Of a stretch of DNA of 64,000 nucleotides, positions 5,095-61,500 are shown piece after piece. Every line of letters starts with the position of its first letter. Position 1 is the stretch's first letter. Source of the DNA: Dehalococcoidia bacterium (GTDB taxonomy: Bacteria > Chloroflexota > Dehalococcoidia > Bin125); contig OZ252031.1 in assembly GCA_965247775.1 (NCBI GenBank), forward strand, positions 1,692,855 to 1,756,854. The letters are read 5' to 3'. The notes below the pieces were generated by a model, which saw only the letters and a program-made list of their open reading frames with translations, made no database searches and was not told where the DNA came from. Position numbers and translations under genes: made by a program.

Positions 5095-5349
5095 ATGACG
5101 GAGCAGGAGCCGGCGGGGACGGGGGCGGACGAAGGGGCGGAGGGCGAAGAGCGCGAGCCGGAGATCCGGGCGTCGGACCGGTTCACGATCAACGGCAAGC
5201 CGCTGCCGTTCGGAGAGTTCGTGTCGGCGACGATGTCGCAGATGCCGTGGCGCGAGCCGACGGCGCTGGAGCCGCAGCCAGAGCCCGAGCCGTGGGACGT
5301 GATCTGGCTGTCGCGGGTTCCGGCGGGAGAGGAGCCAGCGGAGGCGTGA
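5095..5349 (+). CDS. hypothetical acidic small protein
   Basis: ATG preceded by the strong RBS aaaggagc; high GC3; 84 aa. Confidence 0.5.
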   Translation: MTEQEPAGTGADEGAEGEEREPEIRASDRFTINGKPLPFGEFVSATMSQMPWREPTALEPQPEPEPWDVIWLSRVPAGEEPAEA

Positions 5350-8770: not shown

Positions 8771-10258
8771 ATGACGAACGCCGCGCTGGGGGAGACGCCG
8801 GCCCCGCCGTTGCCGCAGGACCAGGACTGGATCAACACGTCGCGGCCGCTGACGCTGGAGGATGTGCGCGGGCGGCTGGTGATCCTGCACTTGTGGACGT
8901 ACGCCTGAATCAACTGCCTGCACGTGCTTCCGCAGTTGCGGAAGCTGGAGCGTGGTTATGCGGATGCGCTCACGGTGATCTCGGTGCACTCGCCGAAGTT
9001 CCCGACGGAGCGGGAGACGGCGCATCTGCGGCAGGCGGTGCTGCGGCATCGGATCGAGCATCCGGTGCTGAACGATCGGGACTTCCACTACTGGCAGCAG
9101 CTAGGGGCGCGGGCCTGGCCGACGCTGTACTTCGTGGATCCGCTGGGCAACGTGATCGGGCGGCACGAGGGGGAGATCCGGGCGGAGGCGGTGGCGCCGC
9201 TGCTGGAGTCGTGGCTGGGGGAGTACCGGTCGGCGGGGCTGCTGGGGGGGACGACGCTGCCCCTGGAGCGGGCGACGGGGGTGGCGAGTCCGCTGTCGTT
9301 CCCGGGCAAGGTGGCGTACGACGAGGCGAGCGGGCGGCTGTTCGTCGCGGACAGCAACCATGACCGCGTGGTCGTTGGGCGGCTGGACGGGTCGGTGGAG
9401 CAGGTGGTGGGGAGCGGGGAGGCGGGGCTGGCGGACGGTGCGCCGGGGTCGGCCCGGTTCCGGCAGCCGCAGGGGATGACGGTATGGCGGGACGAGGCGG
9501 GGGAGGCGCTGTTCGTGGCGGATACGGAGAACCACGCGATCCGGCGGGTGGACCTGGAGAGCTGGGAGACGACGACGGTGGCGGGGACGGGGGAGCAGTG
9601 CGGGACGGCGCCGCAGCGGCGGGCGGCGCGGGGGGCGGCGCTGAACTCGCCCTGGGACGTCGTGGGGCGGGAGGGGCGGCTGTACGTGGCGATGGCGGGC
9701 TTCCACCAGTTGTGGGAGTTGGACCTGGAAGCGGGGATGATCGGGCCGTGGGCGGGGTCGATGCGAGAGGGGATCGTGGATGGGACGCGGGCGTCGGCGG
9801 AGCTGGCGCAGCCGAGCGGGCTGTCGCTGGGGGGGGAGGGGCTGGCGTTCGCGGATAGCGAGTCGAACGCGGTGCGGCTGGCGGGGGTCGGGGTTGGGGG
9901 CCGGGTCGAGACGGCGATCGGGGAGGGGTTGTTCGAGTTCGGGGACGCGGACGGGGGGCAGGGGGTGGCGCGGCTGCAGCATCCGCTGGACGTGGCCTGG
10001 CTGGGCGAGGAGCTGTATGTGGCGGACACGTTCAATCACAAGGTCAAGCAGGTCTTTCCGCGCACGCAGCAGGTGCGGACGGTGTGTGGGGGGCTGGGGG
10101 AGGCGGACGGGTCGTTGGGGGAGGCGCGGTTCAACGAGCCGGGGGGGATCTGCGCGGGGCCGGGGCGGAGTTTGGTCGTGGCGGACACGAATAACCACGC
10201 GGTGCGGGTGGTGGACTTGGCGGGGGGGAGGGTGCGGACGGTGGAACTCCGCCCATAA
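8771..10258 (+). CDS. selenoprotein candidate: thioredoxin-fold plus NHL-repeat protein (NHLRC2-like) with in-frame TGA (Sec46) in a U-x-x-C redox motif
   Basis: ATG 8771 follows aggag. Continuous frame 8771..10258 except TGA at 8906-8908. Context LVILHLWTYA-U-INCLHVLPQL aligns with the NHLRC2 FTYCCINC motif. NHL repeats follow. Stem-loop 8926-8945 lies downstream of the TGA. Confidence 0.7.
8926..8945 (+). promoter_or_regulatory. candidate bacterial SECIS hairpin (gcttccgc-AGTT-gcggaagc), about 20 nt downstream of UGA
   Basis: Perfect 8-bp stem with an AGUU loop, seen in the sequence. Confidence 0.45.
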
Positions 10259-10864: not shown

Positions 10865-11803
10865 TCAGGTCGAACGGGGCGAAGGTGCGAGGGAAGGAGC
10901 GGGGGTGCGGAAGGGGGCGGCGACGTCGCTGAGGAAGCGTTCGAGGGCGTCGCCTTTTTCGTCGATGGTGAGACCGAGGGGCCAATCGGGCAAGATGAAC
11001 TCGTCCAGGCCGAGGTCGGCGTAGGTGCCCAGGGTGGCCTGCATCTGGGCGGGGGAGCCGCTGAGCATGGGGCGGCCGCTGCTCTCGATGCGCTGGGTGA
11101 GGACAGCATCTTGGCTGAGGGGGACGAGGGCGACGGCGGAGCGCTGGATGGAGGCGGGGTCGCGGCGGATGCGGCGGCAGTGCTTGGCAAGCACGCGGGA
11201 TTTGTGGTCGATGACGGGGGGCAGGCCCCAGACGTTCCACTCGTCGGCGTAGTGGGCGGCGATGCGGAGGGTGACCTTTTCGCCGCCGCCACCGATGAGG
11301 AGGGGGAGGCGGTCCTGGAGGGGCTTGGGGGCGAGGGGGGCGCCGGTGAGCTGGTAGTGGGCGCCGGTGACGTCGGTGCGGTCCTTGCGCAGAAGTCCGG
11401 TGACGACGAGGCAGGCTTCCTCCAGGCGCTGGAGGCGCTCAGCGAGGCTGCCGAAGGGGATGCCGTAGGCGGCGTGCTCGTTCTCTTGCCAGCCGGCACC
11501 GAGGCCGAGGACGAAGCGGCCGCCGCTGATGATGTCGAGGCCGGCGGCCATCTTGGCGAGGACGGCGGGGTGGCGGTAGGTATTGCCGTTGACGAGGTGG
11601 CCGAGACGGACGCGGGGGATGTGGACGGCGAGGGCGCTGAGGGCGGTCCAGCTCTCGTTGACGGGCTGGGAGAGGTCGCCGGCCATGGGCATGAAGTGGT
11701 CGGCGTACCAGAGGCTGTCGATGCCGAGGGTCTCGGCGCGGCGGGCGAGGGCGAGGGTGTCGTTCCAGGGGGTGGCGGGCGTGGGCCAGAGGCCGAATCG
11801 CAT
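10865..11803 (-). CDS. LLM-class (luciferase-like) F420-dependent oxidoreductase
   Basis: LLM-family (luciferase-like) motifs. ATG at 11803 is preceded by gagaggag. Confidence 0.8.
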   Translation of the reverse strand: MRFGLWPTPATPWNDTLALARRAETLGIDSLWYADHFMPMAGDLSQPVNESWTALSALAVHIPRVRLGHLVNGNTYRHPAVLAKMAAGLDIISGGRFVLGLGAGWQENEHAAYGIPFGSLAERLQRLEEACLVVTGLLRKDRTDVTGAHYQLTGAPLAPKPLQDRLPLLIGGGGEKVTLRIAAHYADEWNVWGLPPVIDHKSRVLAKHCRRIRRDPASIQRSAVALVPLSQDAVLTQRIESSGRPMLSGSPAQMQATLGTYADLGLDEFILPDWPLGLTIDEKGDALERFLSDVAAPFRTPAPSLAPSPRST

Positions 11804-11937
11804 GGGTGCGCTCCTCTCGGCGGGATCGTCGCGGTGCATACTAGGTGGAGCGAGGAGGCCAGGGTGCGCGCGTGCGCGGGTGTGCGTCAGGGGCGAGGAA
11901 TGACGGCGCCGCGCCGAGACGATGGGAGGAGCGTGCG

Positions 11938-12618
11938 TTGACGAGCGTGCTGGTGGTGGAGGACGAGCGCAGCCTGAGCGAGACGCTGCGCTTCAATCTG
12001 GAGCGCGAGGGCTACGAGGTCCACACGGCGGGCGACGGGAAGAGCGGCCTGGCGCTGGCGCGGCGCCTGGAACCGGACCTGATCATCCTGGATGTGATGC
12101 TGCCGGCGCTGAGCGGGACGGAAGTGCTGCGGCAGTTGCGGACGGATTCCGATGTGCCGGTCCTGCTGCTGACGGCGCGGACGGGGGAGATCGACCGGGT
12201 GCAGGGGCTGGACTTGGGGGCGGACGACTACATCACCAAGCCGTTCGGTCTGGCGGAGCTGCTGGCGCGCGTGCGGGCACACCTGCGGCGGCGGGTAGGG
12301 ATCGGAGAGGCGTCGTCGTCGGTGATCGAGTTCGCGGGGCGGGCGTTGGACCTGGCACGGCGGGAGTTGCGGCGGGGCGAGGCGGTGGTGGCCCTGCGGC
12401 CGAAGGAATACGATCTGCTGGCGTACCTGGTGCAGCATCCGGGGCAGACGTTCACGCGGGACGCGTTGCTGAACGACGTCTGGGACATCGATTTCGGAGG
12501 GGGGACGCGGACGGTGGACGTCCACATCCGCTGGCTGCGGCAGAAGCTGGAGGAGGACCCGGCCAGCCCGCGACACCTGATCACGGTGCGGGGCGCGGGC
12601 TACCGCTTCGAGCTGTGA
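11938..12618 (+). CDS. OmpR/PhoB-family response regulator
   Basis: Receiver domain (VLVVEDE, D...LDVMLP, K) plus winged-helix C-terminal domain. TTG start lies 7 nt after gggagga. Confidence 0.8.
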   Translation: MTSVLVVEDERSLSETLRFNLEREGYEVHTAGDGKSGLALARRLEPDLIILDVMLPALSGTEVLRQLRTDSDVPVLLLTARTGEIDRVQGLDLGADDYITKPFGLAELLARVRAHLRRRVGIGEASSSVIEFAGRALDLARRELRRGEAVVALRPKEYDLLAYLVQHPGQTFTRDALLNDVWDIDFGGGTRTVDVHIRWLRQKLEEDPASPRHLITVRGAGYRFEL

Positions 12619-25125: not shown

Positions 25126-25169
25126 CGTGGCGCGAGTGTAGGGCGCAGCGGGCGGATACGCTGGCGCCG

Positions 25170-25955
25170 ATGAGCGCGACGCCGCTGCACGAGGCGCTGG
25201 AGATCCCGCTGCCGGAGGCCGGGCGGCCGAGCCTGCTGGCCGTGGTGGGCGGGGGCGGCAAGACGACGCTGCTGTTCGCGCTGGGGGCGGAACGATCGGC
25301 CGCCGGGGGGGCGGCTGCGAGCGCCGTGAGCGTGCTGACGACGACGACGAAGTTCACGATCCCGGCGGCGGGGGCGGAGTTCCCGACGGTACTGGCGACG
25401 AATGTCCTGGTGCGGGCGGCGGCGATCGCGGAGGTGCAGGGGCGGGGGCCGGCGACGGTCCTGGTGGGGGCGGGGCGGGGGGAGCGGGGGCGGCTGCTGG
25501 GGGTGGAGGCGGAGTGGCCGTCGCAGGCGCTGGGGATCGCGGGGGTGACGTTCGTGGGGGTGGAGGCGGACGGGTCGGCGGGGCGGCCGTTCAAGGCGCC
25601 GGCGTCGCATGAGCCGGTGATGCCGGCGGGGGTCACGCACGTGGCGGCGGTGGTGGGCGTGGAGGCGCTGGGCAAGCCGCTGGAGGCGCGCTTCGTGCAT
25701 CGGCCGGAGCGGGTGATGGCGCTGACGGGGGCGCGCGAGGGGGCCGAGGTGACGGCTGGGATGATCGGGGCTGTGTTGTCGCACGCCGCCGGAGGCCGGA
25801 AGGGAGTTCCCGCCGCAGCGGCGTTCAGTGTCCTGGTGACACGGGCGGGACGCGACATCGAGGGAGCGCGGGCGATCGGGGCGGCATGCCGGGAACGGGG
25901 CGTCGAGCGGGCCGTCGCCTGGGATGCGACGGAGGCCGTGATCGAGGCGGTGTGA
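25170..25955 (+). CDS. yqeC: YqeC-family protein (putative selenium-dependent molybdenum hydroxylase accessory protein)
   Basis: P-loop LAVVGGGGKTTL, then VSVLTTTTKF and a conserved ALGKPL block, in the order expected for the YqeC family. Divergent from mobA. Confidence 0.6.
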   Translation: MSATPLHEALEIPLPEAGRPSLLAVVGGGGKTTLLFALGAERSAAGGAAASAVSVLTTTTKFTIPAAGAEFPTVLATNVLVRAAAIAEVQGRGPATVLVGAGRGERGRLLGVEAEWPSQALGIAGVTFVGVEADGSAGRPFKAPASHEPVMPAGVTHVAAVVGVEALGKPLEARFVHRPERVMALTGAREGAEVTAGMIGAVLSHAAGGRKGVPAAAAFSVLVTRAGRDIEGARAIGAACRERGVERAVAWDATEAVIEAV

Positions 25956-27126: not shown

Positions 27127-29922
27127 CTACCAGTACTGGCGGCGTTTGCCGCGGCGACGCTTGCCGCCGCCGTGGCCCCACTCCTGGGGGTCGGCGGCGC
27201 GGTCGAGGGCGACGGCGCAGACCTTGTATTCGGGGATGCGGGATTGCGGGTCGTAGGCGTTGTTGGTGAGCCAGTTGGCGGCGGAGTCCTTGAGGCGGAG
27301 GAAGGGCACGAAGACGGAGCCGGGGGCGACGTCCTCGGTGAGGAAGGCGACGCCCTCGAGGCGACCGCGGCGTGAGCGGAGGAGGACGGTTTCGCCGTCG
27401 GCGATCTCGGCGCGGGCGGCGTCGGCGGGGTGGACGGCGACGCGGAGTTCCGGGAAGGAGTCGGCGAGGCCCTGGACGCGACTGGTGAGGGCGCCGCCGT
27501 GCCAGTGGTAGAGGACACGGCCGGTGTTGAGGATGAGGGGATAGGCGTCGTCGGGCTGCTCCTCGGCGGGGGCGGTCTGACGCACGGGGACGAACTTGGC
27601 CTTGCCGCGAGGGAAGTCCCGGGCGTACATGCGCTCGGTGCCGGGATGCGCAGGGTCGGGGCAGGGCCACTGGATGCCGCCTTCGCGGTCGAGGCGATCA
27701 TGGGAGAGGCCGGCCATGATGGGGGTGAGCGCGGCGAGTTCGTCGAAGATCGCGGCGGCGGAGGGGTGGTCGAAGCCGCGCAGTTCGACGTTGCGCCGCC
27801 GCGCGACGCGGGCGGCGAGGTCCTGCACGATCTCCCAGTCGGGCCGGGCCTCGCCGGGAGGGTCGAGGAGCTTGCGGAGGCGCTGGACGCGGCGCTCGCT
27901 GTTGGTGACGGTGCCCTCCTTCTCAGCGAAGGAGGCGGCGGGGAGGACGACGTCGGCGATGTCGGCAGTCTCCTGCATGAAGATGTCCTGCACCACGAGG
28001 AAGTCGAGCGTGGCGAGCATCTCGGTGGCGTGCGCGAGGTTGGGGTCGGTGAGCGCGGGGTTCTCGCCGACGACGTACATGCAGCGGATGCTGCCGTCGC
28101 CCATGGCCTCGACCATGTCGGTGGCGCGCAGCCCCTCCTTGTCTGACAAGCGGAGGGCGGCCACGTCGCCGCCCCAGACGGACTGGAAGCGGGCGAGGTT
28201 GTCGGGGGTGTAGCGCTGGTAGCCGGGGAGGGCGTCGGGAACGCAGCCGGCGTCGCCGGCGCCCTGGACGTTGTTCTGGCCGCGCAGGGGGGAGACGCCG
28301 TTGCCGGCGCGGCCGACCTGGCCGGTGAGCAGGGCGAGGTTGAGGAGGGCAGTGGCGTTGGCGGTGCCGTTGGTGTGCTGGGTGACGCCCATGCCCCAGA
28401 GGAGGCAGGAGCCATCGCGGCCGGGGGGGCCGCCGTGCCCGGCGGGGCGGGCGTAGAGGCGGGCGGCGCGGCAGAGGAGATCGGCCGGGACGCCGGAGAG
28501 TTCCTGCACATGTTCGGGGGTGTAGTGGTCGAGGGCGGCGCGCCAGGCGTCGAAGTCCTCGGTGCGGTCGCGGATGAATGCTTCGTCGTGGAGGTTCTCG
28601 TCGAGGATGAGCTTGGCCATGCCGTTGAGGACGGCGACGTCGGTGCCGGGGTACTGGCGCAGCCAGAGGTCGGTGTGATCGCAGAGTTCGATGCGCTTGG
28701 GATTGAGGATGATCATGCGGACGCCGTGATCGTTGACGGCGCGGCGGATGCGGCTGGCGATGACGGGGTGGTTGGAGGAGGTGTCGGAGCCGACGACCAT
28801 GACGCAGCCGGCGTCCTCGTAGTCGGTGTAGGAGTTGGAGGTGGCGCCGCTGCCGAGCTGGTTGAGCATGGCATCGACGGAGGGGGCGTGGCAGAGGCTA
28901 GTGCAGTGGTCGATGTTGTTGGTGCCCATGAGGGCGCGGACGAGCTTCTGGATCAGGTAGTTGTCCTCGTTGGTGGCTTTGGCGCTGGCGAAGGCGCCGA
29001 AGTGGCCGCGGTGCTGGACGAACTTGTCGGCGACGAGGTCGAGAGCCTCGTCCCAGGTGGCGGGCTGGAGGGCGCCAGCGCGGCGGATGAGGGGCGTCGT
29101 GAGGCGGTCGGGGTGGTTGACGAACGAGACGCCGAAGCGGCCCTTGACGCAGAGGAGGCCGAGGGAGGAGCGGTTGGCGGGGTCGTCATCGACGTGGGTG
29201 ACGCGGCCGGCGTCGTCGGCGGAGAGCTGGATGCCGCAGCCGACGCCGCAGTAGGGGCAGACCGTGGAGACGGTGCGGGCGGGGGCGGGGGGCTGCTTGG
29301 AGCGGATGGCGCCGGTGGGACAGGCGGCGACGCACTGGCCGCACGAGGTGCAGATGGACTCCCCGAGGGGTTCGTCGGCGAAGGGGGCGATGCGGGTGGC
29401 GGCGGCGGCGCCGGCGATGCCGATCGCGCCGATGTGCTGGAGGTCCTGGCAGGCGGAGGTGCAGCGACCGCAGAGGATGCACTCGGTGGCGTCGAAGAGG
29501 TAGAAGGGGTTGCTCTCGTCGCGGTGATCGTTGCGGCGGGGGGTCCAGCGGCGGGGGTCGGCGACGTGGGAGACGGCAGCGCGGCCGAGTTCGGAGCCGG
29601 GCTGGGGATCGGATTCGGGGTCGCGCATGGCGAGGGTGAGTTCGAGGACACCGCGGCGGACATCGCGCGCTTGCTCGGATTGGGTGTGCACGACCATGCC
29701 ATCATTCGCGGGAAGGGAGCAGGAGGCGGGGAGGCCGCGGACACCGTCGATCTCGACGAGGCAGGTGCGGCAGGCGCCGAGGGCGGGGCCGTCCGGGTCC
29801 TTGCAGAGGTGGGGGAAGCCGCCGTCGCGGGCGAGGACAGCGTCGAGGACGGTGGCGCCGGGGGGGACCTGAATGGGTTCGCCATCGACGGTGAGGGAGA
29901 GGGGAGCGCTCGTGGGAGTCAT
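27127..29922 (-). CDS. fdsA: NAD-dependent formate dehydrogenase catalytic (alpha) subunit, molybdopterin/Fe-S, Cys-type
   Basis: N-terminal 2Fe-2S and 4Fe-4S Cys clusters. Active-site region NNIDHCTSLCHAPSV has Cys, not Sec. 931 aa. ATGA overlap with the upstream gene. Confidence 0.9.
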   Translation of the reverse strand: MTPTSAPLSLTVDGEPIQVPPGATVLDAVLARDGGFPHLCKDPDGPALGACRTCLVEIDGVRGLPASCSLPANDGMVVHTQSEQARDVRRGVLELTLAMRDPESDPQPGSELGRAAVSHVADPRRWTPRRNDHRDESNPFYLFDATECILCGRCTSACQDLQHIGAIGIAGAAAATRIAPFADEPLGESICTSCGQCVAACPTGAIRSKQPPAPARTVSTVCPYCGVGCGIQLSADDAGRVTHVDDDPANRSSLGLLCVKGRFGVSFVNHPDRLTTPLIRRAGALQPATWDEALDLVADKFVQHRGHFGAFASAKATNEDNYLIQKLVRALMGTNNIDHCTSLCHAPSVDAMLNQLGSGATSNSYTDYEDAGCVMVVGSDTSSNHPVIASRIRRAVNDHGVRMIILNPKRIELCDHTDLWLRQYPGTDVAVLNGMAKLILDENLHDEAFIRDRTEDFDAWRAALDHYTPEHVQELSGVPADLLCRAARLYARPAGHGGPPGRDGSCLLWGMGVTQHTNGTANATALLNLALLTGQVGRAGNGVSPLRGQNNVQGAGDAGCVPDALPGYQRYTPDNLARFQSVWGGDVAALRLSDKEGLRATDMVEAMGDGSIRCMYVVGENPALTDPNLAHATEMLATLDFLVVQDIFMQETADIADVVLPAASFAEKEGTVTNSERRVQRLRKLLDPPGEARPDWEIVQDLAARVARRRNVELRGFDHPSAAAIFDELAALTPIMAGLSHDRLDREGGIQWPCPDPAHPGTERMYARDFPRGKAKFVPVRQTAPAEEQPDDAYPLILNTGRVLYHWHGGALTSRVQGLADSFPELRVAVHPADAARAEIADGETVLLRSRRGRLEGVAFLTEDVAPGSVFVPFLRLKDSAANWLTNNAYDPQSRIPEYKVCAVALDRAADPQEWGHGGGKRRRGKRRQYW

Positions 29923-31925
29923 GCGGGGACCTCCGGCGTGAGGGCGGAGTCGAAGTGGGCGAGGGCGCTGGTGACGGGCGCGACGGCCATTTGGCCCAAG
30001 CCGCAGAGCGAGGCGGAGCGGAGGAGGGGGATGAGGGCGTCGATGTCGGCGCGGGCGGCCTCACGATCGGCCTGGCCGGCGCTGCGGAGGCGGCGGACGG
30101 CGGCGGCGAGACGCTCGCCGCCCTCGCGGCAGGGGGTGCACTTGCCGCAGGACTCGCGGGCGTTGTAGTCGGCCTCGATCTGGAGGATCTCGCCGACGGG
30201 GGTCGCGGCGTCGAAGGCGACGATGCCGCCGGAGCCGAGAACGGCGCCGGCCTCGTCGAGGGCGCCGGGGCCGATGGGGAGGTCGAGCTTCGTGGCGGGG
30301 AGGAGCCCGCCGGAGGGGCCGCCGGCGACGACGCCGCCGAGGGCGGCCGGATCGGCAACGCCGCCGATGTGGAGGATGGCGGCGACGGTGGCGCCCATCG
30401 GGACCTCGATCAAACCGGGGCGGGGGACCGCGCCGCTGAGGCTGATCAACTTGGTGCCGGGGGCATCGTCGGTGCCGGCGTCGCGGAACCAGTCGACGCC
30501 GAAGCGGAAGAGGTCGGGCAGGTTGCAGAGGGTTTCGACGTTGCTGATCACGGTGGGGCGGCCCCAGAGGCCGCGCTCGGTGGGGAAGGGAGGGCGCAGG
30601 CGAGGGACGGCGCGGCGGCCCTCGATGCTTTCGAGGAGGACGGTTTCCTCGCCGCAGACGTAGCCGCCGGCGCCGCGACGGATCTCGACGCGGAGGCCCG
30701 CGGTGTCACTTCCCTTATGTGCGCGGGCGTTCTGCGCGCCGGGGGCGCCGGCGCGCAGAACGCCCGCTTCCTCCGCCTGGGCGAGGGCGGTGGTGAGGCG
30801 CTGATGGGAGAGCGCCGCTTGCCCGTTGACGTAGATGAAGGCGAGGTCCGCGCCGACGGCGTGGGCGGCGATGCAGACGCCCTCGATCAGGCGATGGGGG
30901 TCGGCCTCCATGAGGGCGCGGTCCTTGAAGACGCCGGGCTCCCCCTCCTCGGCGTTGACGACGAGGCTCGGGGTGCCGTTGCGGGTGGCAGCGGCGCTGG
31001 CGGCGCGCCACTTGAGGTGGACGGGGAAGTAGGCGCCGCCACGGCCGCGCAGGCCGGAGGCTTCTACCGCGTCGACGATCTCCTCGGGGGTGATGGAGAG
31101 CGCTGTCTTGAGGCCGACGTAGGCGCCGGCGGCGCGGGCCTCGTCGAGGGAGGCGGGGTCGATGTGGCCGGCCCGGGCGAGGAGGCGGCGGGTCTGGGGC
31201 GCGAGAAAGTCGTGCAGGGCGGGGTCCTCGGGGGCGCCGGCGAGGAGGGCGCGCGCGACGCCGGCGGCGGCGGCGGCCGTGACGGGGACGGCGGCGGGAC
31301 GGGTGGGGCCGTCCGGGGGGAGGGCGAGGACGGGGGCGGCCCAGGCAGCGCCATCGCCGCCGGTCTCGACGACGTCGATCTCGGGCAAGGCGTCGCGCAG
31401 GGCGTCGAGGACGTGGCCCGCGCCGACGGCGCGGGCCATGGCACCGCCGCGGAGGTTGAGCCGGGGGCGGGGGCCGGGGGGCGACGGCACGAGGGCGGGG
31501 GCCGGGTCGGCGGCGAAGCCCGCGGCGGCGCGGCCCCGCTCTGGTGTATCGGCTCTGCCGAAGAGCGGGCCGTCGTCCTCGACGACGGGAGCGACGGCGC
31601 AGGCGAAGCAACACTCGCGTTCCTCCACGCGGCGGCCGGCGTCGCGGAGGGAGGCGGCCAGGGCGTCGCTGCCAGCCAAGCGGCAGCTCAGACCGCGGCA
31701 GACAGCGATCGCGCCGGGCTCGGGGGGGAGGGTGCGGAACTCGGTGTAGGAGGTCGCGACGGCGTAGAGGTCGGAGTTGGGGATGTGGAGCCAGTGCCCG
31801 ATCTGCTCCAGGCCGGCGGGGTCAAGGTAGCCCGCGATCTCGTGGAGCAGGTGGAGGGCGGGGAGCGCTTGGGCGCGCTCCCGGGGGAGAGAAACCAGCC
31901 GATCGTCGAGGCCGTCGACCGTCAT
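29919..31925 (-). CDS. formate dehydrogenase beta/gamma fusion (NuoE-like 2Fe-2S plus NuoF-like FMN/NAD-binding 4Fe-4S subunit)
   Basis: NuoF motifs GRGGAYFP ... GGYVCGEETVLLESIEG ... ESCGKCTPCR. Start ATG 31925 or TTG 31982. Confidence 0.75.
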   Translation of the reverse strand: MTVDGLDDRLVSLPRERAQALPALHLLHEIAGYLDPAGLEQIGHWLHIPNSDLYAVATSYTEFRTLPPEPGAIAVCRGLSCRLAGSDALAASLRDAGRRVEERECCFACAVAPVVEDDGPLFGRADTPERGRAAAGFAADPAPALVPSPPGPRPRLNLRGGAMARAVGAGHVLDALRDALPEIDVVETGGDGAAWAAPVLALPPDGPTRPAAVPVTAAAAAGVARALLAGAPEDPALHDFLAPQTRRLLARAGHIDPASLDEARAAGAYVGLKTALSITPEEIVDAVEASGLRGRGGAYFPVHLKWRAASAAATRNGTPSLVVNAEEGEPGVFKDRALMEADPHRLIEGVCIAAHAVGADLAFIYVNGQAALSHQRLTTALAQAEEAGVLRAGAPGAQNARAHKGSDTAGLRVEIRRGAGGYVCGEETVLLESIEGRRAVPRLRPPFPTERGLWGRPTVISNVETLCNLPDLFRFGVDWFRDAGTDDAPGTKLISLSGAVPRPGLIEVPMGATVAAILHIGGVADPAALGGVVAGGPSGGLLPATKLDLPIGPGALDEAGAVLGSGGIVAFDAATPVGEILQIEADYNARESCGKCTPCREGGERLAAAVRRLRSAGQADREAARADIDALIPLLRSASLCGLGQMAVAPVTSALAHFDSALTPEVPA

Positions 31926-32003
31926 TGGACGGATTATCGCACGGCGGCGGCGTGGCCGGCGCCTGGGCGGGCAGCGGGTCAACCAGCGTCCACGAAGGCG
32001 TGG

Positions 32004-32789
32004 CTACCAGGGGATCGGCAGGAAGCGCTTCCAGCCGCGGGGTTTGATCTCCTTGATGCGCCAGGGCGCCTTCTGGGTGGAGAAGGTGGGAGCGATGTCG
32101 GCGCCGTCGGCGGCGACGAGTTCGGCCAGGGCCTTATCGATGCGGTCGGCGTCGGCCCAGGTGGCCTTGTAGTGGACGCGGCCGTCCTTGCCGACGACGT
32201 AGACCATGTTGGGGAGGTCGCCGAGCTGGTGGTGGACCTCCTGATCGATACCGTCAACGAGGACGCCGACGGACATGGACTTCTGCCGCACCAGTTCCTG
32301 GGCGTACTGCATTTTCTGCTCGTACGTCTTGTGCTCGTGGTAGGCGGTGAAGATCGTTTCGTCGGGGTGGGGTTCCCGCACGTAGAGGTTGAGGACGGCG
32401 ACGTCGTGGCCGGCGTACTTGTCCTTGAGCTGCTCGAAGAGCGGCACCTGCCGCCGGTAGGGCGGTCACGTCATGGCGCCGGTCATCAGCACGAAATGCT
32501 TCTGGCCCTTGAAGGTGGCGGTGTTGACGCGCTCGCCGGTCGTGGTTTCGAGGTCGATGGCGGGGAATTCCTCGCCGGGAGGGAAGGTGGTCTTGGATTT
32601 CTGGTAGAGCTTCTGGATGTAGCCCTCGCCGCCGAGGCCGAGGTGGCCGAGCATGATCTTGAAGACGCGGACGCGGTCGATGTAGTACATGCTCCAGAAG
32701 CCCATCCAGGGCCCGGGGGGCTTGTCGATGGCTTCGTTGTGGTCCTGTAGGTAGGAGCGCGCGGCCGGCTCCCCTTCGGTGGTGGTCAT
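32004..32789 (-). CDS. selenoprotein candidate: iodothyronine-deiodinase-like thioredoxin-fold protein, in-frame TGA (Sec108)
   Basis: Track ORFs 32466..32789 and 32004..32447 are in the same frame and separated only by TGA at 32466-32468. Context KHFVLMTGAMT-U-PPYRRQVPLFEQL ... LYVREPHPDE aligns with the deiodinase FGSATUPPF ... YIDEAHPSDGW. ATG 32789 follows agggggac. Stem-loop right after the TGA. Confidence 0.7.
32440..32455 (-). promoter_or_regulatory. candidate bacterial SECIS hairpin (ggcggc-AGGU-gccgcu) about 13 nt downstream of UGA
   Basis: 6-bp stem including one G-U pair; loop carries GGU. Confidence 0.45.
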
Positions 32790-32806
32790 CGTGCGTCCCC
32801 CTGTTC

Positions 32807-32853
32807 CTGCGAGGCGGTCCGGGCCGGCCGCGGCCGCGCGGACCGCCTCGCAG
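32807..32853 (-). promoter_or_regulatory. 15-bp perfect inverted repeat (ctgcgaggcggtccg ... cggaccgcctcgcag) with a palindromic 17-nt spacer, ending 4 nt before the RBS of the deiodinase-like gene
   Basis: Seen in the sequence. Lies in the 5' leader between the tRNA operon and the selenoprotein gene. Confidence 0.5.
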
Positions 32854-32919
32854 CGCGTCGGGAGCGATTGTAGCGGCCGGGCGGCCGCGCGGCGTCACCG
32901 CTGGCGACATCTGGCGGGG

Positions 32920-36364: not shown

Positions 36365-36525
36365 GGGCCTGAGCGTAACACCGGCGGCGACGCGCCTCGG
36401 GGCCCGGGCGCGGGCACGGAGGTCGCCTGGACGGCAGGACCAGGGCGGCTTGCTGGGCCCCGGGGGCGGCCATACGATTGGGGCGGCCCCGTCGCGGGCC
36501 ATCTCGCAGCCGGAGGAGCGCGCCT

Positions 36526-37128
36526 GTGACGACACTCTTCAGTGAGGACCATGAGGACCGGGTGGACAGCCCGGACCGGTTGCCGCCGGGTCAGCGGTTG
36601 ACCGAGCAGTGGCCGGTCCTGACCTACGGGAGCGCGCCGCAGGTGGAACGAGGCGAGTGGAGCCTGCAGGTCTGGGGCGAGGTGGAGGAGGACCTGGTCT
36701 GGGACTGGGAGCAGTTCCTGGCACTGGGCACGGAGGAGCGGACGAACGACATCCACTGCGTGACGCACTGGTCGCGCTACGACAACACCTGGGAGGGTGT
36801 GCTGCTCTCGACGATCCTGGCGCACGTGCGGCCGACGCCGGGCGCGCGGTCGGTCCTGTTCCATTCCTATGGGGGCTATACGACGAACGTGCTGCTGGAG
36901 GACATCGCGCGGGACGACCACGCGATGCTGGCCTTCTCGCACGACGGGGGGCCGATCGCGCGGGAGCACGGCGGCCCGGTGCGCGGGGTGATCCCCTCGT
37001 TGTATTTCTGGAAGAGCGCCAAGTGGGTGCGTGGAATGGAACTGCTGCCCCAGGACCGGCCGGGCTTCTGGGAGATGTATGGCTACCACCTGCACGGGGA
37101 CCCCTGGCAGGAAGAGCGCTACTCCTAG
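36526..37128 (+). CDS. molybdopterin-dependent oxidoreductase (sulfite oxidase/MsrP-like Mo-binding domain)
   Basis: HCVTHWS ... DGGPI ... GGPVRGVIPSLYFWKSAKWV motifs. GTG start 7 nt after ggaggag. Confidence 0.7.
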   Translation: MTTLFSEDHEDRVDSPDRLPPGQRLTEQWPVLTYGSAPQVERGEWSLQVWGEVEEDLVWDWEQFLALGTEERTNDIHCVTHWSRYDNTWEGVLLSTILAHVRPTPGARSVLFHSYGGYTTNVLLEDIARDDHAMLAFSHDGGPIAREHGGPVRGVIPSLYFWKSAKWVRGMELLPQDRPGFWEMYGYHLHGDPWQEERYS

Positions 37129-37227
37129 GGCCCCGATTGCGGTGGCCGCGCGGGCAGGAGACGCAGGCCGTGAAATGGGAGAGCCTGGGGGCGGACGGCT
37201 GAGGGCGCTGGGGAGCGGGGAGTGGCG

Positions 37228-38367
37228 ATGACGACATCGACGCCGATAGAAGTCGATGATCCGATCAACCGAGCGATCTTGGCGGAGTCCGAGGATCGGC
37301 TACAGGGTTTCCAGCGCGACCCGCTGGGCGAGATCGCGCGACGCAGCGGGCTGGAGCTGGGGCTGGTGGTGGAGCGGATCCGGGCGATGCTGGAGGCGGG
37401 GACGATCCGGCGGGTGCGGCAGACGCTGCTGCCAACGAATCTGGCGGCGGGGGCGCTGGTGGCCTGGCAAGTGCCGGAGTCCCGGTTGCAGGAGGCCTTC
37501 GACTGGATGTTCGAGCGGGACCCGTTCTCGGGACATGTGGTGATCCGCAGCACGGATGCGGCCGCGCCGGGGGCGCGCTACCGGCTGTGGACGACGCTGA
37601 AGGTGCCGCAGGGCTTTGCCTTGCAGCGACACGCGGAGCATCTCCGCGCGCGCACGGGGGCGGAGCGTTTCCGGCTGATGCCGGCGAAGTGCCTGTTCTC
37701 GTTGGGGGTGGGGCACGTGCGGCGGCGGGGGCTGCACCCGGGGGCGCGCAGCGACGGGGCGGGGCAGGCGCTGGAGACCGGCGTCGTGGCGCTGGACGCG
37801 GTGGAGTGGCGGGTGGTGGAGGCGCTGAAGCGCGAGTTCAGGCCGGAGGAACTCGGTGGCGAGATCTGGGCGGGGCGGGCGGGGGAGGCGGGGGTGGATC
37901 TGGCGTCGTTCTGCCGCGTTGCGTCGTCGCTGGAGGCGCGCAAGCTGGTGGGGCGCTTCTCGACGTTCCTGGAGCACGTGAAGCCGGTGGGGGGGGCGGC
38001 GCCCGTGACGCGCTACAACGCGCTCTTCCACTGGGCGGTCCCGAGGGGGCGGGAGATGGCGGCGGGGCGCGAGGTGGGACGACACGAGATTATGACCCAC
38101 GCCTACTGGCGGGAGGGCGGGCCGGAGTTCCACGACGTGAACATCATGGGCGTGGCGCACGGGCGGGATCGGGAGCTGCTGCTGGCGCACAAGGCGGCGA
38201 TCGACGCGCACTTGGAGGAGGCGGGGATCCCGCTGGGGTACACGGCGGTGTTCTGGGGGGGGCGGAGCGAGATCAAGCCGTCGGAGGTGGCGCCGTCGGC
38301 GTACGCGGCGTGGTGCGAGCGGGAGGGGCTGGATCCGGAGCGGATGCGCGCCACGGCGAACGCCTGA
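37228..38367 (+). CDS. tandem Lrp/AsnC-like domain protein (siroheme decarboxylase NirDL/AhbAB-like)
   Basis: Two AsnC-type HTH plus RAM-like halves. ATG follows ggggag. Confidence 0.45.
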   Translation: MTTSTPIEVDDPINRAILAESEDRLQGFQRDPLGEIARRSGLELGLVVERIRAMLEAGTIRRVRQTLLPTNLAAGALVAWQVPESRLQEAFDWMFERDPFSGHVVIRSTDAAAPGARYRLWTTLKVPQGFALQRHAEHLRARTGAERFRLMPAKCLFSLGVGHVRRRGLHPGARSDGAGQALETGVVALDAVEWRVVEALKREFRPEELGGEIWAGRAGEAGVDLASFCRVASSLEARKLVGRFSTFLEHVKPVGGAAPVTRYNALFHWAVPRGREMAAGREVGRHEIMTHAYWREGGPEFHDVNIMGVAHGRDRELLLAHKAAIDAHLEEAGIPLGYTAVFWGGRSEIKPSEVAPSAYAAWCEREGLDPERMRATANA

Positions 38368-39296: not shown

Positions 39297-42282
<2,986 letters not shown>

Positions 42283-42354
42283 TGCTTTGCGGTTTCCGCA
42301 GTGTGGGGTTGATGATGGTCAGGCTGGTCGCTCGTGTAGGCTGTTCGGTGCCGG

Positions 42355-42429
<75 letters not shown>

Positions 42430-46923: not shown

Positions 46924-47778
46924 TCAGGCGCGATCGCGCGCGGCGGCGATGGCGCGGCCGGCCATGACCGCGGCCATGGCGCGGCGGTACTGGGCGGAGG
47001 CGTGGATGTCGGTGTTGACATCGTCGAAGCCGTCGGCGGCGTGGGCGGCGGCGGCCTCGACGACGTCAGCGGATAGGGTCCGTCCCACGAGGGCGTCCTC
47101 GACGGCGGGGAGGCGCTGGGCGTGGGAGGCGAGACCAGTGATGCCGAGGCGGGCGCCGCGGCAGATGTCGCCGTCGAGGTCGAGGACGGCGGCGACGCCG
47201 ATAATGGCGTAGTGGGAGGCGCGCTGGTGGAGCTTGGCGTAAGCGGCGGTCTGCACGGCGGCGAAGCGGACGGCGGTGATCACCTCGTCCTCGGCGAGGT
47301 CGACCGTGAAGAGATCCTGGAAGAACCCGCCGATGGGCACGGTGCGGGGGCCGGCGGCGCCGACGACATCGAGTTCGGCATCGAGGGCGAGGACGACAGC
47401 GGGCATGTCGGCGGCGGGGTCGGCGTGGGCGAGGCTGCCGCCGATGGTGCCGAGATTGCGGACCTGGGGGTCGCCGATTTCAGCGGCGGCCTCGGCGACG
47501 ATGGGGGCGTGCAGCTGGAGGACGTCGGATCGCTCCACCTCCCGATGGGTGGTGGTGGCGCCGATGGTGATCCGGCCGGCGGCCTCGCTGATGCCGCCGA
47601 GGCCGGGCACGCCGCCGATGTCGATGAGGAGGCCGGGCTCGCTGAGGCGCAGCTTCATGAGGGGGATGAGGCTGTGGCCGCCGGCGAGGAGGCGGCCCTC
47701 GCCGCCGGCCTCACCGAGGAGGCGGACGGCCTCCTCGACGGTGGCGGCGCGCTTGTAGTCGAAGGCGGTGGGGATCAT
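46924..47778 (-). CDS. xanthine dehydrogenase/CO dehydrogenase family FAD-binding medium subunit (CoxM/CutM-like)
   Basis: FAD_binding_5 motifs LLAGGHSL and [12 protein letters not shown]. Confidence 0.85.
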
Positions 47779-47860
47779 GACTGGGCTCCGTGGGTGCTGT
47801 GGGGATCCTGGCGGCGTTCGCGGCGCCGGCCGCCGAGGCGGGCGGGGGCGGCTGGGGCGA

Positions 47861-48340
47861 TCACGCGCGGGGTCCGGCCGTGGCGGCGCGCTGGACGGCG
47901 TTGACGATGTGCTGGTAGCCGGTGCAGCGGCAGAGGTTGCCGTCGAGGCCGTGGCGGATCTCGTCCTCGGACGCGTTGGGGTTGTCGTCGAGGATCTGGA
48001 TGGCGGAGATGATCATGCCGGGGGTGCAGTAGCCGCACTGCAGGCCGTGCTCCTGCCAGAAGGCCTCCTGCATGGGGTGGAGCTGTTCGTCGCTGCCGAT
48101 GCCTTCGATGGTGGTGATCTCGGCGCCGTCGGCTTGGACGGCGAACATGGTGCATGATTTGGCGCTGCGGCCGTTGAGCATGATGGTGCAGGCGCCGCAC
48201 TGGCTGGTATCGCAGCCGACGTGGGTGCCGGTGAGGCCCAGGACTTCGCGCAGGAAATGGACGAAGAGGAGCCGCGGCTCCACTGCCGCTTCATGGACGG
48301 CGCCGTTGACGGTGAGGCGAATGGGGATGCTGTCCGGCAT
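47861..48340 (-). CDS. xanthine dehydrogenase/CO dehydrogenase family (2Fe-2S)-binding small subunit (CoxS-like)
   Basis: [10 protein letters not shown] and CGYCTPGM Cys clusters. Confidence 0.9.
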
Positions 48341-56044: not shown

Positions 56045-56107
56045 GGTAGGGCGGGACCGGGCGCTCGTCTCCGTGGGGCGGGCGCGACGCCGGGGCGGGA
56101 GGCGACC

Positions 56108-57067
56108 ATGCGGAACTTGACGATCGGCGTGCACGTCGCGCCACCGAACGCGGCGGCGCGGGTGGAGGGAATCGTGGCGGCGGAGGCGGCGGGGCTGGAG
56201 GTGGCCTGGCTGACCGTGTCGCCGGTGGCGCCGGACCCGTTCGCCGTGCTGGGAGCGGCGGCGGGGCGGACGGAGCGGATCGCGCTGGGGACGAGCATCG
56301 TGCCGACGTTTCCGCGACACCCTTTGGTGATGGCGCAGGGGGCGATAGCGGTGGACCAGCTGGCGCCGGGCCGGCTGCGGCTGGGGGTGGGGCCGAGTCA
56401 CGGGCCGATGGTGGAGGGGCTCTACGGGATCCCCTTCGAGCGGCCGCTGGCACAGCTGCGGGAGTACCTGACGATCCTGCGCGGGTTCTTGTCGGAGGGG
56501 CAGGTGGATTTCGAGGGGGAGGTGTTGCAGGCGCACGTCCCGGCCGCCTTCGCGGTGCGGCCGGCGGCGGTGGAGATCCTGGCTGCAGCGCTGCGCCCGC
56601 GGGCGTTCAGGCTCTGCGGGGAACTGACGGACGGGGCGATCTCCTGGATGTGCCCGCCGCCGTACATCCGCGACACGGCGGCGCCCGCGCTGGCGGCCGG
56701 GGCGCAGGCGGCGGGGCGGGAGCGGCCGCCGCTGATCGTGCATGTGCCGGTGGTGGTGTCGGAGGATCGGACGACGGTGGCGGCGGCGGCGCAGAAGCGC
56801 TACGGGGCGTACCAGACGATGCCGTTCTATCGCCACATGATGCTGGAGGCGGGGATGGCGGACGCGGCGGGGGAGACGTTCACGGAGGCGATGGCGGACG
56901 CGCTGATCGTGTCTGGGGACGAGGACGCGGTGGCGGCGCGGCTGCGAGCGCTGCCGGAGTCCGGTGCGGACGAGCTGCTGGCGGACATCGCGCCGGCCGG
57001 GGACGATGGGGGGCGATCGCGGCAGCGGACGCTGGAACTGCTGGGGGCGCTGGCGCGGGCGGACTGA
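56108..57067 (+). CDS. LLM-class F420-dependent oxidoreductase
   Basis: LLM family. ATG follows gggagg. Confidence 0.8.
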   Translation: MRNLTIGVHVAPPNAAARVEGIVAAEAAGLEVAWLTVSPVAPDPFAVLGAAAGRTERIALGTSIVPTFPRHPLVMAQGAIAVDQLAPGRLRLGVGPSHGPMVEGLYGIPFERPLAQLREYLTILRGFLSEGQVDFEGEVLQAHVPAAFAVRPAAVEILAAALRPRAFRLCGELTDGAISWMCPPPYIRDTAAPALAAGAQAAGRERPPLIVHVPVVVSEDRTTVAAAAQKRYGAYQTMPFYRHMMLEAGMADAAGETFTEAMADALIVSGDEDAVAARLRALPESGADELLADIAPAGDDGGRSRQRTLELLGALARAD

Positions 57068-57300: not shown

Positions 57301-57564
57301 GAGCAAGACGTACTTCATGAGGTTCCCCGGCTGACTCGGGTCGGGGGCGTTTGCCCGACGACGGGCGGGCGAGGGCGAGATCGACAGGGCGGCTGGGCTC
57401 CTTGCGCGGGGAGCGTTATGCCCGGGCCGGCATATTGGCGGGGCGGGCGGAGACGGGGATACTCTGGGCGCTGGGGCGCCTGAGGCGGGGTGCACCCGCC
57501 CGGGTACGCCGCCGCGAACGCACGCCAGTCGCCGGCGCAGGGCCGGCGGGAAGGACAACCGCCC

Positions 57565-59433
57565 ATGCCGGAGGAACTCGCGTACAACGGCAAGATCCTG
57601 AACGTGCATCTCAGTAGCGGCGAGATCACGCCGGAGGACGTGCCGGAGCAGATGTACAAGGACTACCTGGGCGGCTACGGACTGGGCGCCCGCTGGCTGT
57701 TCGATCGGATTCCACAGGGGGCGGACCCAATGGGCCCGGACAATGTCCTGGGGCTGATCCCGGGGGTGATGACGGGGACGCCGATCTTCGGCAACCGCTT
57801 CCAGGCGGTGTGCAAAAGCCCGACGACGGGGGGCTGGGGGGACGCGAACTGCGGCGGGGACTTTGGGCCCTACCTGAAGTTCGCCGGCTGGGACGGGATC
57901 CTGCTGTACGGCGAGGCGGCGAAGCCGGTCTACATCTTGATCGACGACGACAAGGTGAGCATTGAGGACGCGTCGGCGTATTGGGGGATGGACGCGATCG
58001 GGGCGGAGAAGACGTTCAAGGAGGAGTACGGCAAGAAGACGTCGGTGGCGGTGATCGGGCAGTCGGGGGAGAAGCTGTCGTACCTGGCGGGGATCTGCAA
58101 CGAGCACGGGCGGCTAGCGGCGCGGTCGGGCGTGGGGGCGGTGATGGGGTCGAAGCAGGTGAAAGCGGTGGTGGTGAAGTCGACGCGGCGGATGATCCAG
58201 CAGCACGACAAAGAGGCGCGGGCGCTGATGAAGGAGTCGCTGGACGACTTCGGGGTGCCGTTGCGGGACTTCTTCCGCACCTTCGGGACGACGGGGATCA
58301 CGGCGGGGTCAGCGCTGAGCGGGGACTCGCCGGTGCGCAACTGGGGCGGCGTGGGGGTAGAGGTGTTCTCGGACGTGGACGGGCTCAAAGGCCCGGTGGT
58401 GAATGAGAAGATGGAGAAGCACTACGCCTGCTGGCACTGCCCGCTGGCGTGCGGAGCGGAGAGCGTGGAGTCGACGAACCCGAAGTACCCGTACCCGCGG
58501 CACACGCACCGGCCGGAATACGAGACGATGGCGTCGTTCGGGACGATGAACCTGATCAATGACCTGGACTTCCTCACCCACGCCAACCACGTCTGCAACG
58601 AGTACGGGCTGGACACCATCGGGGCGGGGGCGACGATCTCGTTCGCGATCGAATGTTTCGAGAACGGGATCATCACAAAGGAGGACACAGACGGGCTGGA
58701 ACTCCGCTGGGGCGGAGCGGACGCGGCGATGGATCTGCTGCACAAGATCGGCAGGCGGGAGGGCTTCGGGGACGTTCTGGCGGACGGGGTGAAGGTGGCG
58801 GCGGAGAAGATCGGCAATGGGTCGGAGGCGTACGCGATCCACATCGGCGGGCAGGAGCTGCCGATGCACGACCCCAAGCTGCAGCCGGAATACCACACGA
58901 CGTACAAGCTGGACCCGACGCCGGCGCGGCACACGCAGTACGAGGGCAACAGCCGCTTCGGCGGGCCCACGTACCCGCGGGCGCCGAAGGACTTCAAGGA
59001 CTACGCAAGCCGCGGCGAGCACCACAAGGGTGCGAGCGAGTACATGCACGTGGTGAACGCGACGGGGATGTGCCAGTTCATCATGATGGCGGCGCCAACG
59101 GACCGGTTCCCCCAGTGGATCAACCAGGTGACAGGCTGGGGGATGACGGGGGAGGAGTTGCAGCAGGCGGGGGAGCGGATCGCCAACCTGCGCATGGCTT
59201 TCGAGGTGCGGGAGGGCAACAACCCGCGCGCCCGCTACGTCCCGGGGCGGATCTGGGGCGGGGAGAGCACGGCGCAGGAGGTGGGCCCGCTGGAGGGCGT
59301 GACGCTGGACGTGGAGAAGCTGGAGACGGACTTCCTCACGGCCTGCGGCTGGGACACGGAAACGTGCACGCCGAGCCGGGGGAAGCTGGAGTCGCTGGGG
59401 CTGGCGGACGTGGCGGAAGCGATCGGTGTCTAA
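57565..59433 (+). CDS. aldehyde:ferredoxin oxidoreductase (tungstopterin AOR family)
   Basis: AOR N-terminal and catalytic domains with the 4Fe-4S Cys ligands. ATG follows gggaagga. Locally lower GC. Confidence 0.8.
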   Translation: MPEELAYNGKILNVHLSSGEITPEDVPEQMYKDYLGGYGLGARWLFDRIPQGADPMGPDNVLGLIPGVMTGTPIFGNRFQAVCKSPTTGGWGDANCGGDFGPYLKFAGWDGILLYGEAAKPVYILIDDDKVSIEDASAYWGMDAIGAEKTFKEEYGKKTSVAVIGQSGEKLSYLAGICNEHGRLAARSGVGAVMGSKQVKAVVVKSTRRMIQQHDKEARALMKESLDDFGVPLRDFFRTFGTTGITAGSALSGDSPVRNWGGVGVEVFSDVDGLKGPVVNEKMEKHYACWHCPLACGAESVESTNPKYPYPRHTHRPEYETMASFGTMNLINDLDFLTHANHVCNEYGLDTIGAGATISFAIECFENGIITKEDTDGLELRWGGADAAMDLLHKIGRREGFGDVLADGVKVAAEKIGNGSEAYAIHIGGQELPMHDPKLQPEYHTTYKLDPTPARHTQYEGNSRFGGPTYPRAPKDFKDYASRGEHHKGASEYMHVVNATGMCQFIMMAAPTDRFPQWINQVTGWGMTGEELQQAGERIANLRMAFEVREGNNPRARYVPGRIWGGESTAQEVGPLEGVTLDVEKLETDFLTACGWDTETCTPSRGKLESLGLADVAEAIGV

Positions 59434-60448: not shown

Positions 60449-60564
60449 GCGGGCAGGGGAGCAGGCGGGCGGCGGGGGCGCAAGGGAAGCGCCCCGGTGG
60501 TGCGCGGGCGCGGACCGCGGCGGTCTGCCGGCGGGCAGAGCGCGCGCGGATCGGTCGCTACACT

Positions 60565-61452: not shown

Positions 61453-61500
61453 CAGCGGGAACCGACGAGCGGGCCGGCTGGGCGCGGGAAGGAACAGACG

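Follow-up and report, generated by a model that had tools for sequence, protein, structure and literature searches.

A 64,000-nucleotide stretch of a Dehalococcoidia bacterium genome (contig OZ252031.1, positions 1,692,855 to 1,756,854; the whole stretch is called the window below) carries on its minus strand a reading frame interrupted by a single TGA, which lies in a motif resembling the active site of the iodothyronine deiodinases and is followed on the same strand by genes of a formate dehydrogenase (FDH). Does this TGA terminate translation or is it decoded as selenocysteine (Sec), to which family would the protein belong, and does its position next to the FDH genes tell anything about its function? 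The comparisons reported here give good support to one gene whose UGA codon is decoded as Sec. The product is very likely a genuine Sec-containing oxidoreductase of the deiodinase family without an FDH-specific role.

A single reading frame with one internal UGA codon

The deiodinase-like gene extends over 32789..32004 of the minus strand, from the ATG at 32789..32787 to the TAG stop at 32006..32004, and comprises 261 codons plus the stop in a single frame. Its lone in-frame TGA at 32468..32466 is codon 108 and joins two open reading frames (ORFs) of 107 and 147 aa. The first-pass annotation, made from the sequence alone, had treated these two ORFs as one frame split by the TGA, and this can be read directly in the sequence. 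The G+C content at third codon positions of the gene was 0.90-0.93 on either side of the TGA; that of the window as a whole was 71%. Around codon 108 the protein reads ...KHFVLMTGAMT-U-PPYRRQVPLFEQL...LYVREPHPDE, with the motif GAMT-U-PPYRRQ at the UGA itself. The protein does not contain any cysteine (Cys).

If UGA encoded a standard amino acid in this organism, as it does under genetic codes 4 or 25, the locus would likewise be one gene. Nothing but the in-frame UGA itself speaks for such a reassignment, which is vanishingly improbable. TGA is the most frequent stop codon of the window, terminating 25 of the 47 called genes, and a reassigned code is therefore not an option. Moreover, a scan of the window for in-frame TGAs with coding signal on either side yielded, beyond two ordinary gene junctions, exactly one other case besides the deiodinase-like gene, and in both genes the TGA stands at the Cys position of a redox motif. 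A genome with 71% G+C likewise argues against a reassigned code.

Conservation of the UGA codon among homologous loci

A search of 5.8 billion proteins revealed seven relatives, all of them C-terminal fragments (147-192 aa) starting just past the TGA, which indicated that gene callers split the homologues at the same place. Homologous DNA was collected from the loci of these relatives, from a genome scan that added eight loci (Acidobacteriota, Tectomicrobia and one unclassified metagenome-assembled genome) and from a metagenome scan that added 28. Altogether about 40 loci with 37-92% identity to the window protein were obtained, representing at least three lineages including unassigned metagenome contigs. 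TGA was kept at the codon-108 column in the 13 loci found first and in 28 more found later (loci L001-L043), with the consensus G-A-(I/M/L)-T-U-(P/A)-P-(Y/F)-R and strong protein conservation on both sides of the TGA. Departures from this consensus were restricted to one locus with U-P-P-C (L040) and one frameshifted, unreadable contig. The U-P-P-C of L040, at about position 5261 of that locus, links the clade to the UxxC form of the motif published for bacterial members of the family. Both L040 and L041 are frameshifted, probably owing to assembly errors.

More distant members were collected by a profile search of 1.8 billion representative proteins, which gave 1036 relatives. Many of them are again fragments starting just past the Sec position. 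In the full-length distant relatives the residue at this position is mostly Cys (GS(I/M)T-C-P...); in a few it is Ser, Gly, Asn or Thr. Members of this last kind (P0026, P0049, P0061, P0098 and P0150) should therefore be unable to use the same redox chemistry. The first-pass annotation had proposed to compare this column between homologues, and the comparison gave TGA in all readable loci and Cys in most full-length distant relatives. Retention of the TGA to this extent exceeds what chance would produce. A UGA kept throughout one clade with Cys in its relatives is, as judged from these alignments, the standard comparative signature of a selenoprotein.

This pattern bears directly on the possibility that the UGA is a true stop codon, the locus being either a pseudogene or a source of two small proteins of 107 and 147 residues. 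In favour of a stop, a GTG start codon 18 nt past the TGA opens the second ORF, and gene callers split the locus likewise everywhere. A nonsense mutation, however, would not last at one and the same column in about 40 loci down to 37% identity with both flanks conserved, and a split at this point would sever the thioredoxin fold at its active-site motif. Cys at this column in full-length relatives and a covarying hairpin at the position expected of a selenocysteine insertion sequence (SECIS), described below, also oppose a stop. The pseudogene and the two separate polypeptides are ruled out, with very little probability left to either, because the UGA is conserved and relatives carry Cys in its place.

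A covarying hairpin downstream of the UGA codon

A SECIS-like hairpin (GGCGGC-AGGU-GCCGCU) with a 6-bp stem is present within the coding sequence at 32455..32440 of the minus strand. It begins 10 nt past the end of the UGA, or 13 nt when counted from the U, as the first-pass annotation had described it. The apical loop starts 16 nt after the UGA and has a G among its first bases, as is typical of bacterial SECIS elements. The bSECISearch model places the apical loop 16-37 nt from the UGA. An apical loop that is small and carries a G is required in bacterial SECIS elements (PMC1088965).

The hairpin was evaluated in an alignment of 60 nt around the UGA comprising 32 distinct copies. The 6-bp stem paired in all 192 cells of these 32 sequences. 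Three of its six pairs show compensatory changes; two that are adjacent switch from G-C to C-G between the main two clades, and in one lineage A-U has replaced G-C. The score for covariation was 0.458 as compared to 0.186 for shuffled alignments, none of 500 shuffles reaching 0.458, and it was at most 0.085 when the partner strand was slid. The loop has the form A-G-(G/U)-U with invariant A, G and U. Some of the stem changes shift the encoded residues in step (R-R-Q-V-P-L versus R-G-Q-V-P-A), and these coupled amino-acid changes argue for selection on the RNA.

The best-known element of this kind, the SECIS of Escherichia coli fdhF, is an in-coding-sequence hairpin about 11 nt past the UGA with a small apical loop carrying a conserved G-U. 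The window hairpin resembles it in its position within the coding sequence and in the small apical loop with conserved G-U. It differs in that the stem is only 6 bp long and that neither a bulged U nor a long lower stem is evident. A search with SECIS covariance models had also been proposed; no Rfam model matched the hairpin region, and even a search at permissive threshold gave only a meaningless small nucleolar RNA match. Taken as a whole, the conserved pairing gives good support to the hairpin as a predicted recoding signal, with an architecture recognised by the bacterial SelB-GTP-Sec-tRNA complex.

Relationship of the protein to the iodothyronine deiodinases

When the joined protein (U written as C) was compared with Pfam, the best match was T4_deiodinase (PF00837) with 41.3 bits against a cut-off of 27 over residues 71-209. 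Redoxin (35.5 bits) and AhpC-TSA (34.3 bits) also exceeded their cut-offs but ranked behind it. Searching for solved structures with the clade profile in the Protein Data Bank (PDB) revealed mouse Dio3 (4TR3, E 2.9e-15) and Dio2 (9H48, E 2.4e-12) as the best relatives, followed by ResA/TlpA structures at about 1e-8. The NCBIfam model NF038285 (deiodinase_rel) matched with 76.1 bits (E 3e-21, profile positions 179-324 of 347), which is below its curated cut-off of 250. Since the score is 76 bits against 250, the window protein is, by this profile comparison, related to NF038285 but not a member, and belongs to a different subfamily. No transmembrane segment was found in the protein, the highest Kyte-Doolittle mean over 19 residues being 0.8. 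The locus is thus predicted to encode a 261-residue cytoplasmic thioredoxin-fold protein of the iodothyronine deiodinase family PF00837, and the Pfam and PDB matches bear out the deiodinase-like identity that had been assigned to it from its letters alone.

The resemblance to Dio3 and Dio2 rests on sequence profiles and can be followed residue by residue. The motif GAMT-U-PPY (UGA codon at 32466..32468) lines up without gaps with GSCT-U-PPF of Dio3, placing Sec108 on Sec170, and LYVREPHPDE lines up with YIEEAHPSD of Dio3. In the family the first of these motifs, with Sec or Cys, marks where helix 1 of the thioredoxin fold begins. Both correspondences had been noted in the first-pass annotation and are borne out by the alignment with 4TR3. 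The catalytic proton relay of Dio3 consists of Sec170, Thr169, Tyr197, Glu200, His202 and His219 together with Ser167 (PMC11592359). Besides Sec, five of the six relay residues are kept in the sequence alignment, i.e. Thr107, Tyr136, Glu139, His141 and His153 (corresponding to Thr169, Tyr197, Glu200, His202 and His219 in Dio3, respectively; the last is Gln in a few clade members). The sixth is Ala105, which occupies the position of Ser167 and is Ala throughout the clade. The clade likewise keeps the E-x-H-P block and the His after it that belong to the deiodinase-specific insertion.

In comparison with Dio1-3 (4TR3, 9H48), the bacterial protein thus shares the G-x-x-T-U-P-P-F/Y motif, the Y-x-x-E-x-H-P block and the next relay His, and is predicted to share the thioredoxin fold with the deiodinase insertion. 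In contrast to the animal enzymes, it has no N-terminal membrane anchor and neither the proximal nor the distal Cys, its insertion loop is about five residues shorter, it has Ala in place of Ser167 and does not retain Trp207, and the alignment ends before the Arg275 clamp is reached. The SECIS element is in frame here, whereas in the animal genes it is located in the 3'-UTR. Thyronines are not a plausible substrate in a bacterium resembling Chloroflexota.

The Redoxin and AhpC-TSA scores above their cut-offs and the ResA and TlpA structures at about 1e-8 could mean that the protein is a generic peroxiredoxin (Prx) or a ResA-type thiol-disulfide oxidoreductase and that its likeness to the deiodinases is superficial. 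This is improbable given that deiodinase models come first in Pfam, NCBIfam and PDB alike. The motif T-U-P-P-Y/F with Thr at position -1, as in deiodinases, corresponds neither to the T-x-x-C of Prx nor to CxxC, the E-x-H-P block and following His of the deiodinase insertion are conserved, and a second Cys for a disulfide is absent. Like 1-Cys peroxiredoxins and GPx selenoperoxidases, the protein would depend on an external thiol to recycle the one catalytic chalcogen of its thioredoxin fold, and the AhpC-TSA and Redoxin models matched it weakly. It differs from them in that the deiodinase models scored higher, and neither the P-x-x-x-T-x-x-C motif and conserved Arg of Prx nor the catalytic tetrad of GPx is evident in the window protein. 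Assignment to the deiodinase family is preferred here.

Proposed catalytic cycle and substrate class

As a member of the deiodinase family, the protein would most likely act as a soluble one-Sec reductase with a cycle of the deiodinase type. Sec108 would be the sole redox-active residue, since the protein is devoid of cysteine, and the relay residues Thr107, Tyr136, Glu139, His141 and His153 would surround it. In such a cycle the selenolate would attack an electrophilic atom of a small substrate, for example a peroxide oxygen or an aryl halogen, giving rise to an Se-OH or Se-X intermediate. The leaving group would be protonated by the relay, and an external thiol reductant (thioredoxin or a low-molecular-weight thiol) would restore the selenol. 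The comparisons show the single frame, the family membership, the conserved UGA, the covarying hairpin and the conserved relay residues. Sec insertion itself is inferred from them, and so are the reductant, the substrate and the catalytic cycle; the cycle and the substrate class are much less certain than the identity of the protein.

For the substrate class, a peroxide or another oxidant is a tentative choice that falls somewhat short of an even chance. Reductive dehalogenation is possible but doubtful, and what is left falls to some other type of substrate. The animal-type T-U-P-P-Y/F motif and the almost complete deiodinase proton relay invite a more specific proposal, namely that the Cys-free clade is a genuine reductive dehalogenase of bacteria that depends on selenium and has natural aryl halides as substrates. 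It would then represent the prokaryotic ancestor-type of the thyroid-hormone deiodinases, and in this Chloroflexota lineage the adjacent NAD-linked FDH might supply its reducing power. We consider this proposal a long shot.

Indications of selenium use in the organism

The second gene recovered by the scan for in-frame TGAs is a probable selenoprotein gene with a Thioredoxin_8 domain and NHL repeats (8771-10258, plus strand). Its TGA at 8906-8908 takes the place of the first Cys in a CxxC motif (LHLWTYA-U-INC-LH), and 18 nt past it a hairpin (CUUCCGC-AGUU-GCGGAAG) with a stem of 7-8 bp and an AGUU loop was found. Among its best 120 homologues, 84 are truncated at the TGA point and 36 carry Cys (FWTYC-C-INC). 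Several of the truncated homologues bear the NCBI name 'alkyl hydroperoxide reductase [Chloroflexi bacterium]', an indication that the window probably derives from Chloroflexota. The window also contains yqeC (25158-25952, plus strand, convergent with fdhA), identified by TIGR03172 with 134 bits against an NCBIfam cut-off of 73. This gene marks the selenium-cofactor trait found in molybdenum hydroxylases. Neither yqeB nor selD was seen in the window. A molybdopterin-dehydrogenase FAD-binding subunit is encoded at 46924-48012 of the minus strand. The second UGA-interrupted thioredoxin-like gene and yqeC suggest, as far as gene content can tell, that the organism uses selenium.

Several observations weigh against a Sec-dependent enzyme of the deiodinase type. 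No tRNA-Sec was found in the 64-kb window by ARAGORN or Rfam, and Pfam scans of the 43 called ORFs gave no SelA, SelB or SelD, so that a look for sel genes, as the first-pass annotation had suggested, came back empty within the window. The hairpin alone is worth just -10.6 kcal/mol. A competing pairing forms the minimum free energy fold in the window copy, and the 55-nt stretch is no more stable than its shuffles (z = -0.54). Independent compensatory events are few, essentially the split into two clades and a few single changes. On the protein side, Ser167 of the Dio relay is replaced by Ala, Trp207 of the Dio substrate loop has no aligned counterpart, and the aligned region stops before the Arg275 clamp. 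In the literature searched, experimental work on bacterial members of the family was not found.

The formate dehydrogenase neighbourhood

The gene downstream of the deiodinase-like gene, fdsGB (29919..31925, minus strand), encodes a NuoE-NuoF fusion with the Pfam domains 2Fe-2S_thioredx, Complex1_51K and NADH_4Fe-4S, the diaphorase part of an NAD-linked FDH. It is followed by fdhA (27127..29922, minus strand) for the alpha subunit, whose ATG overlaps the fdsGB stop codon (ATGA) and which scored 719 bits with TIGR01591 against a cut-off of 666. The first-pass annotation had assigned Cys and not Sec to this subunit, and indeed Cys344 (codon TGC, 28893..28891) in HCTSL-C-HAPSV occupies the Sec position of FdhF-type enzymes.

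The same arrangement is found in L001, a metagenome contig that is largely syntenic with the window and whose proteins are 84-92% identical to those of the window. Alignment of the two revealed a conserved context of the fdsGB start, ATG(A/G)CGGTCGAC. Between the stop codon of the deiodinase-like gene and this conserved ATG, indels totalling 17 nt, a number not divisible by three, distinguish the window from L001, and the fdsGB start is therefore likely to be the ATG at 31925 and not the TTG at 31982. The gap of 21 nt given in the first-pass annotation presumes the TTG start; with the ATG it is probably 78 nt (61 nt in L001). The sole conserved intergenic island, CGTGCGATAATCCG (31926-31945, minus strand; about 10485-10505 in L001), ends 4 nt before the fdsGB ATG. 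It contains a TGCGATAAT box that ends 7 nt before this ATG and resembles an extended -10 element, which suggests that the FDH genes could be transcribed from a separate promoter, possibly as a leaderless message.

Could the deiodinase-like gene be functionally coupled to FDH? It would then head a co-transcribed dio-fdsGB-fdhA operon, and its product would serve the enzyme as redox partner, protector or maturation factor. The strand and gene order are the same and the gap is short in both the window and L001, and a terminator scan was empty on the minus strand between the deiodinase-like gene and fdsGB. The gap of 78 or 61 nt with its conserved TGCGATAAT box 7 nt before the fdsGB ATG argues against it, as does a short GC hairpin, differing in sequence, that follows the stop codon in both genomes. 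The adjacency occurs in just these two genomes, whose deiodinase-like proteins are 92% identical. No FDH gene was found near the gene in those loci of other lineages that have usable flanks, and an all-against-all BLAST of flanking ORFs revealed no conserved neighbour across lineages beyond near-identical contigs. Functional coupling is thus unlikely, and the gene most likely came to stand upstream of a Cys-type NAD-linked FDH through a juxtaposition specific to this lineage. The adjacency to the FDH genes that the first-pass annotation had pointed out is real, while the functional tie found no support, as the arrangement is shared with one close relative only. The FDH neighbourhood alone gives little functional guidance.

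Sequences upstream of the deiodinase-like gene

A Shine-Dalgarno-like GGGGGA (32796..32801, minus strand) lies 6 nt before the ATG and is predicted, when the leader is folded, to be paired to a GCUCCC further upstream. The 15-bp inverted repeat that had been reported just upstream of this ribosome-binding site is present at 32807..32853 (minus strand) in the presumed 5' leader. Its GC-rich arms (32807-32824 and 32836-32853) are complementary over 18 nt at 94%, with 15 nt perfect, and the repeat ends 5 nt before GGGGGA. The 91-nt leader folds at -53.5 kcal/mol (z = -3.65). The repeat is absent from the closest relative L001, which retains only a GCTACAATCGC box upstream of its gene. Interpretation of the repeat as a REP-like repeated element was rejected, no further copy being found in the window, and a conserved regulator was rejected on account of its absence from L001. 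The repeat is a lineage-specific leader hairpin. The GCTACAATCGC box shared with L001 includes TACAAT (32867..32872, minus strand), which may be a -10-like element. A consensus promoter scan made no call, and TACAAT is not accompanied by a -35 element. Both the TACAAT and the TGCGATAAT boxes were read from conserved islands in two-sequence alignments of the window with L001.

Comparison with known bacterial deiodinase-like selenoproteins

Deiodinase-like selenoproteins with a bacterial SECIS element, together with Cys homologues, were reported in 2005 from the Sargasso Sea metagenome by Zhang, Fomenko and Gladyshev, who suggested a redox function unrelated to thyroid hormones (PMC1088965). Overviews of prokaryotic selenoprotein families from 2022 and 2026 include this family, with UxxC as the Sec motif (PMC9312934, PMC13188914). 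A bacterial deiodinase-like selenoprotein as such is therefore not unusual, contrary to the first-pass annotation. The window protein agrees with the published ones in the PF00837 domain, the in-frame UGA at the active site, the existence of Cys homologues, the small-loop bacterial-type SECIS with a G directly downstream and the presumed redox function. It differs from them in three respects. Instead of UxxC the clade has U-(P/A)-P-(Y/F), as in the animal enzymes, U-P-P-C occurring in only one of about 40 loci (L040), the window protein lacks Cys altogether, as do the closest clade members, and its NF038285 score is far below the cut-off of that model. Among bacterial selenoproteins of this known kind the clade could, on these alignments, arguably count as a subfamily of its own.

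The result would not surprise a specialist. It documents a subfamily of about 40 loci, always with Sec, that has the animal-type active-site motif and proton-relay residues and whose closest members are free of Cys. It also has a consequence for annotation: every gene caller has split or truncated the two UGA-containing genes of the window, and databases contain the entire deiodinase-like clade as fragments of 107 and 147 aa. The biological value is modest. The protein is a reasonable candidate for a first biochemical test of the role of bacterial deiodinase homologues, and also for questions on the origin of the animal enzymes.

Other features of the window

A 23S rRNA gene (39297-42429, plus strand) stands alone, with a tRNA-Met 70 nt downstream. 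There is no 16S rRNA gene upstream of it, where protein genes fill 36379-38367, and 5S rRNA was not detected anywhere in the window. ARAGORN called a 92-nt 'tRNA-Glu(ctc)' at 31549-31640 of the plus strand, inside and antisense to the fdsGB coding sequence. This call is probably a false positive, as the Rfam tRNA model does not confirm it. The genes at 57484-59433 (plus strand), 10865-11992 (minus strand), 56045-57067 (plus strand) and 60406-61815 (plus strand) include a tungsten-type aldehyde:ferredoxin oxidoreductase; two luciferase-like (F420-type) oxidoreductases, a PAC2-family protein and a homologue of the ferredoxin-thioredoxin reductase beta-chain belong to the same set. This gene content, with aldehyde:ferredoxin oxidoreductase, F420-type enzymes and PAC2 among others, fits a Chloroflexota- or Actinomycetota-like organism.

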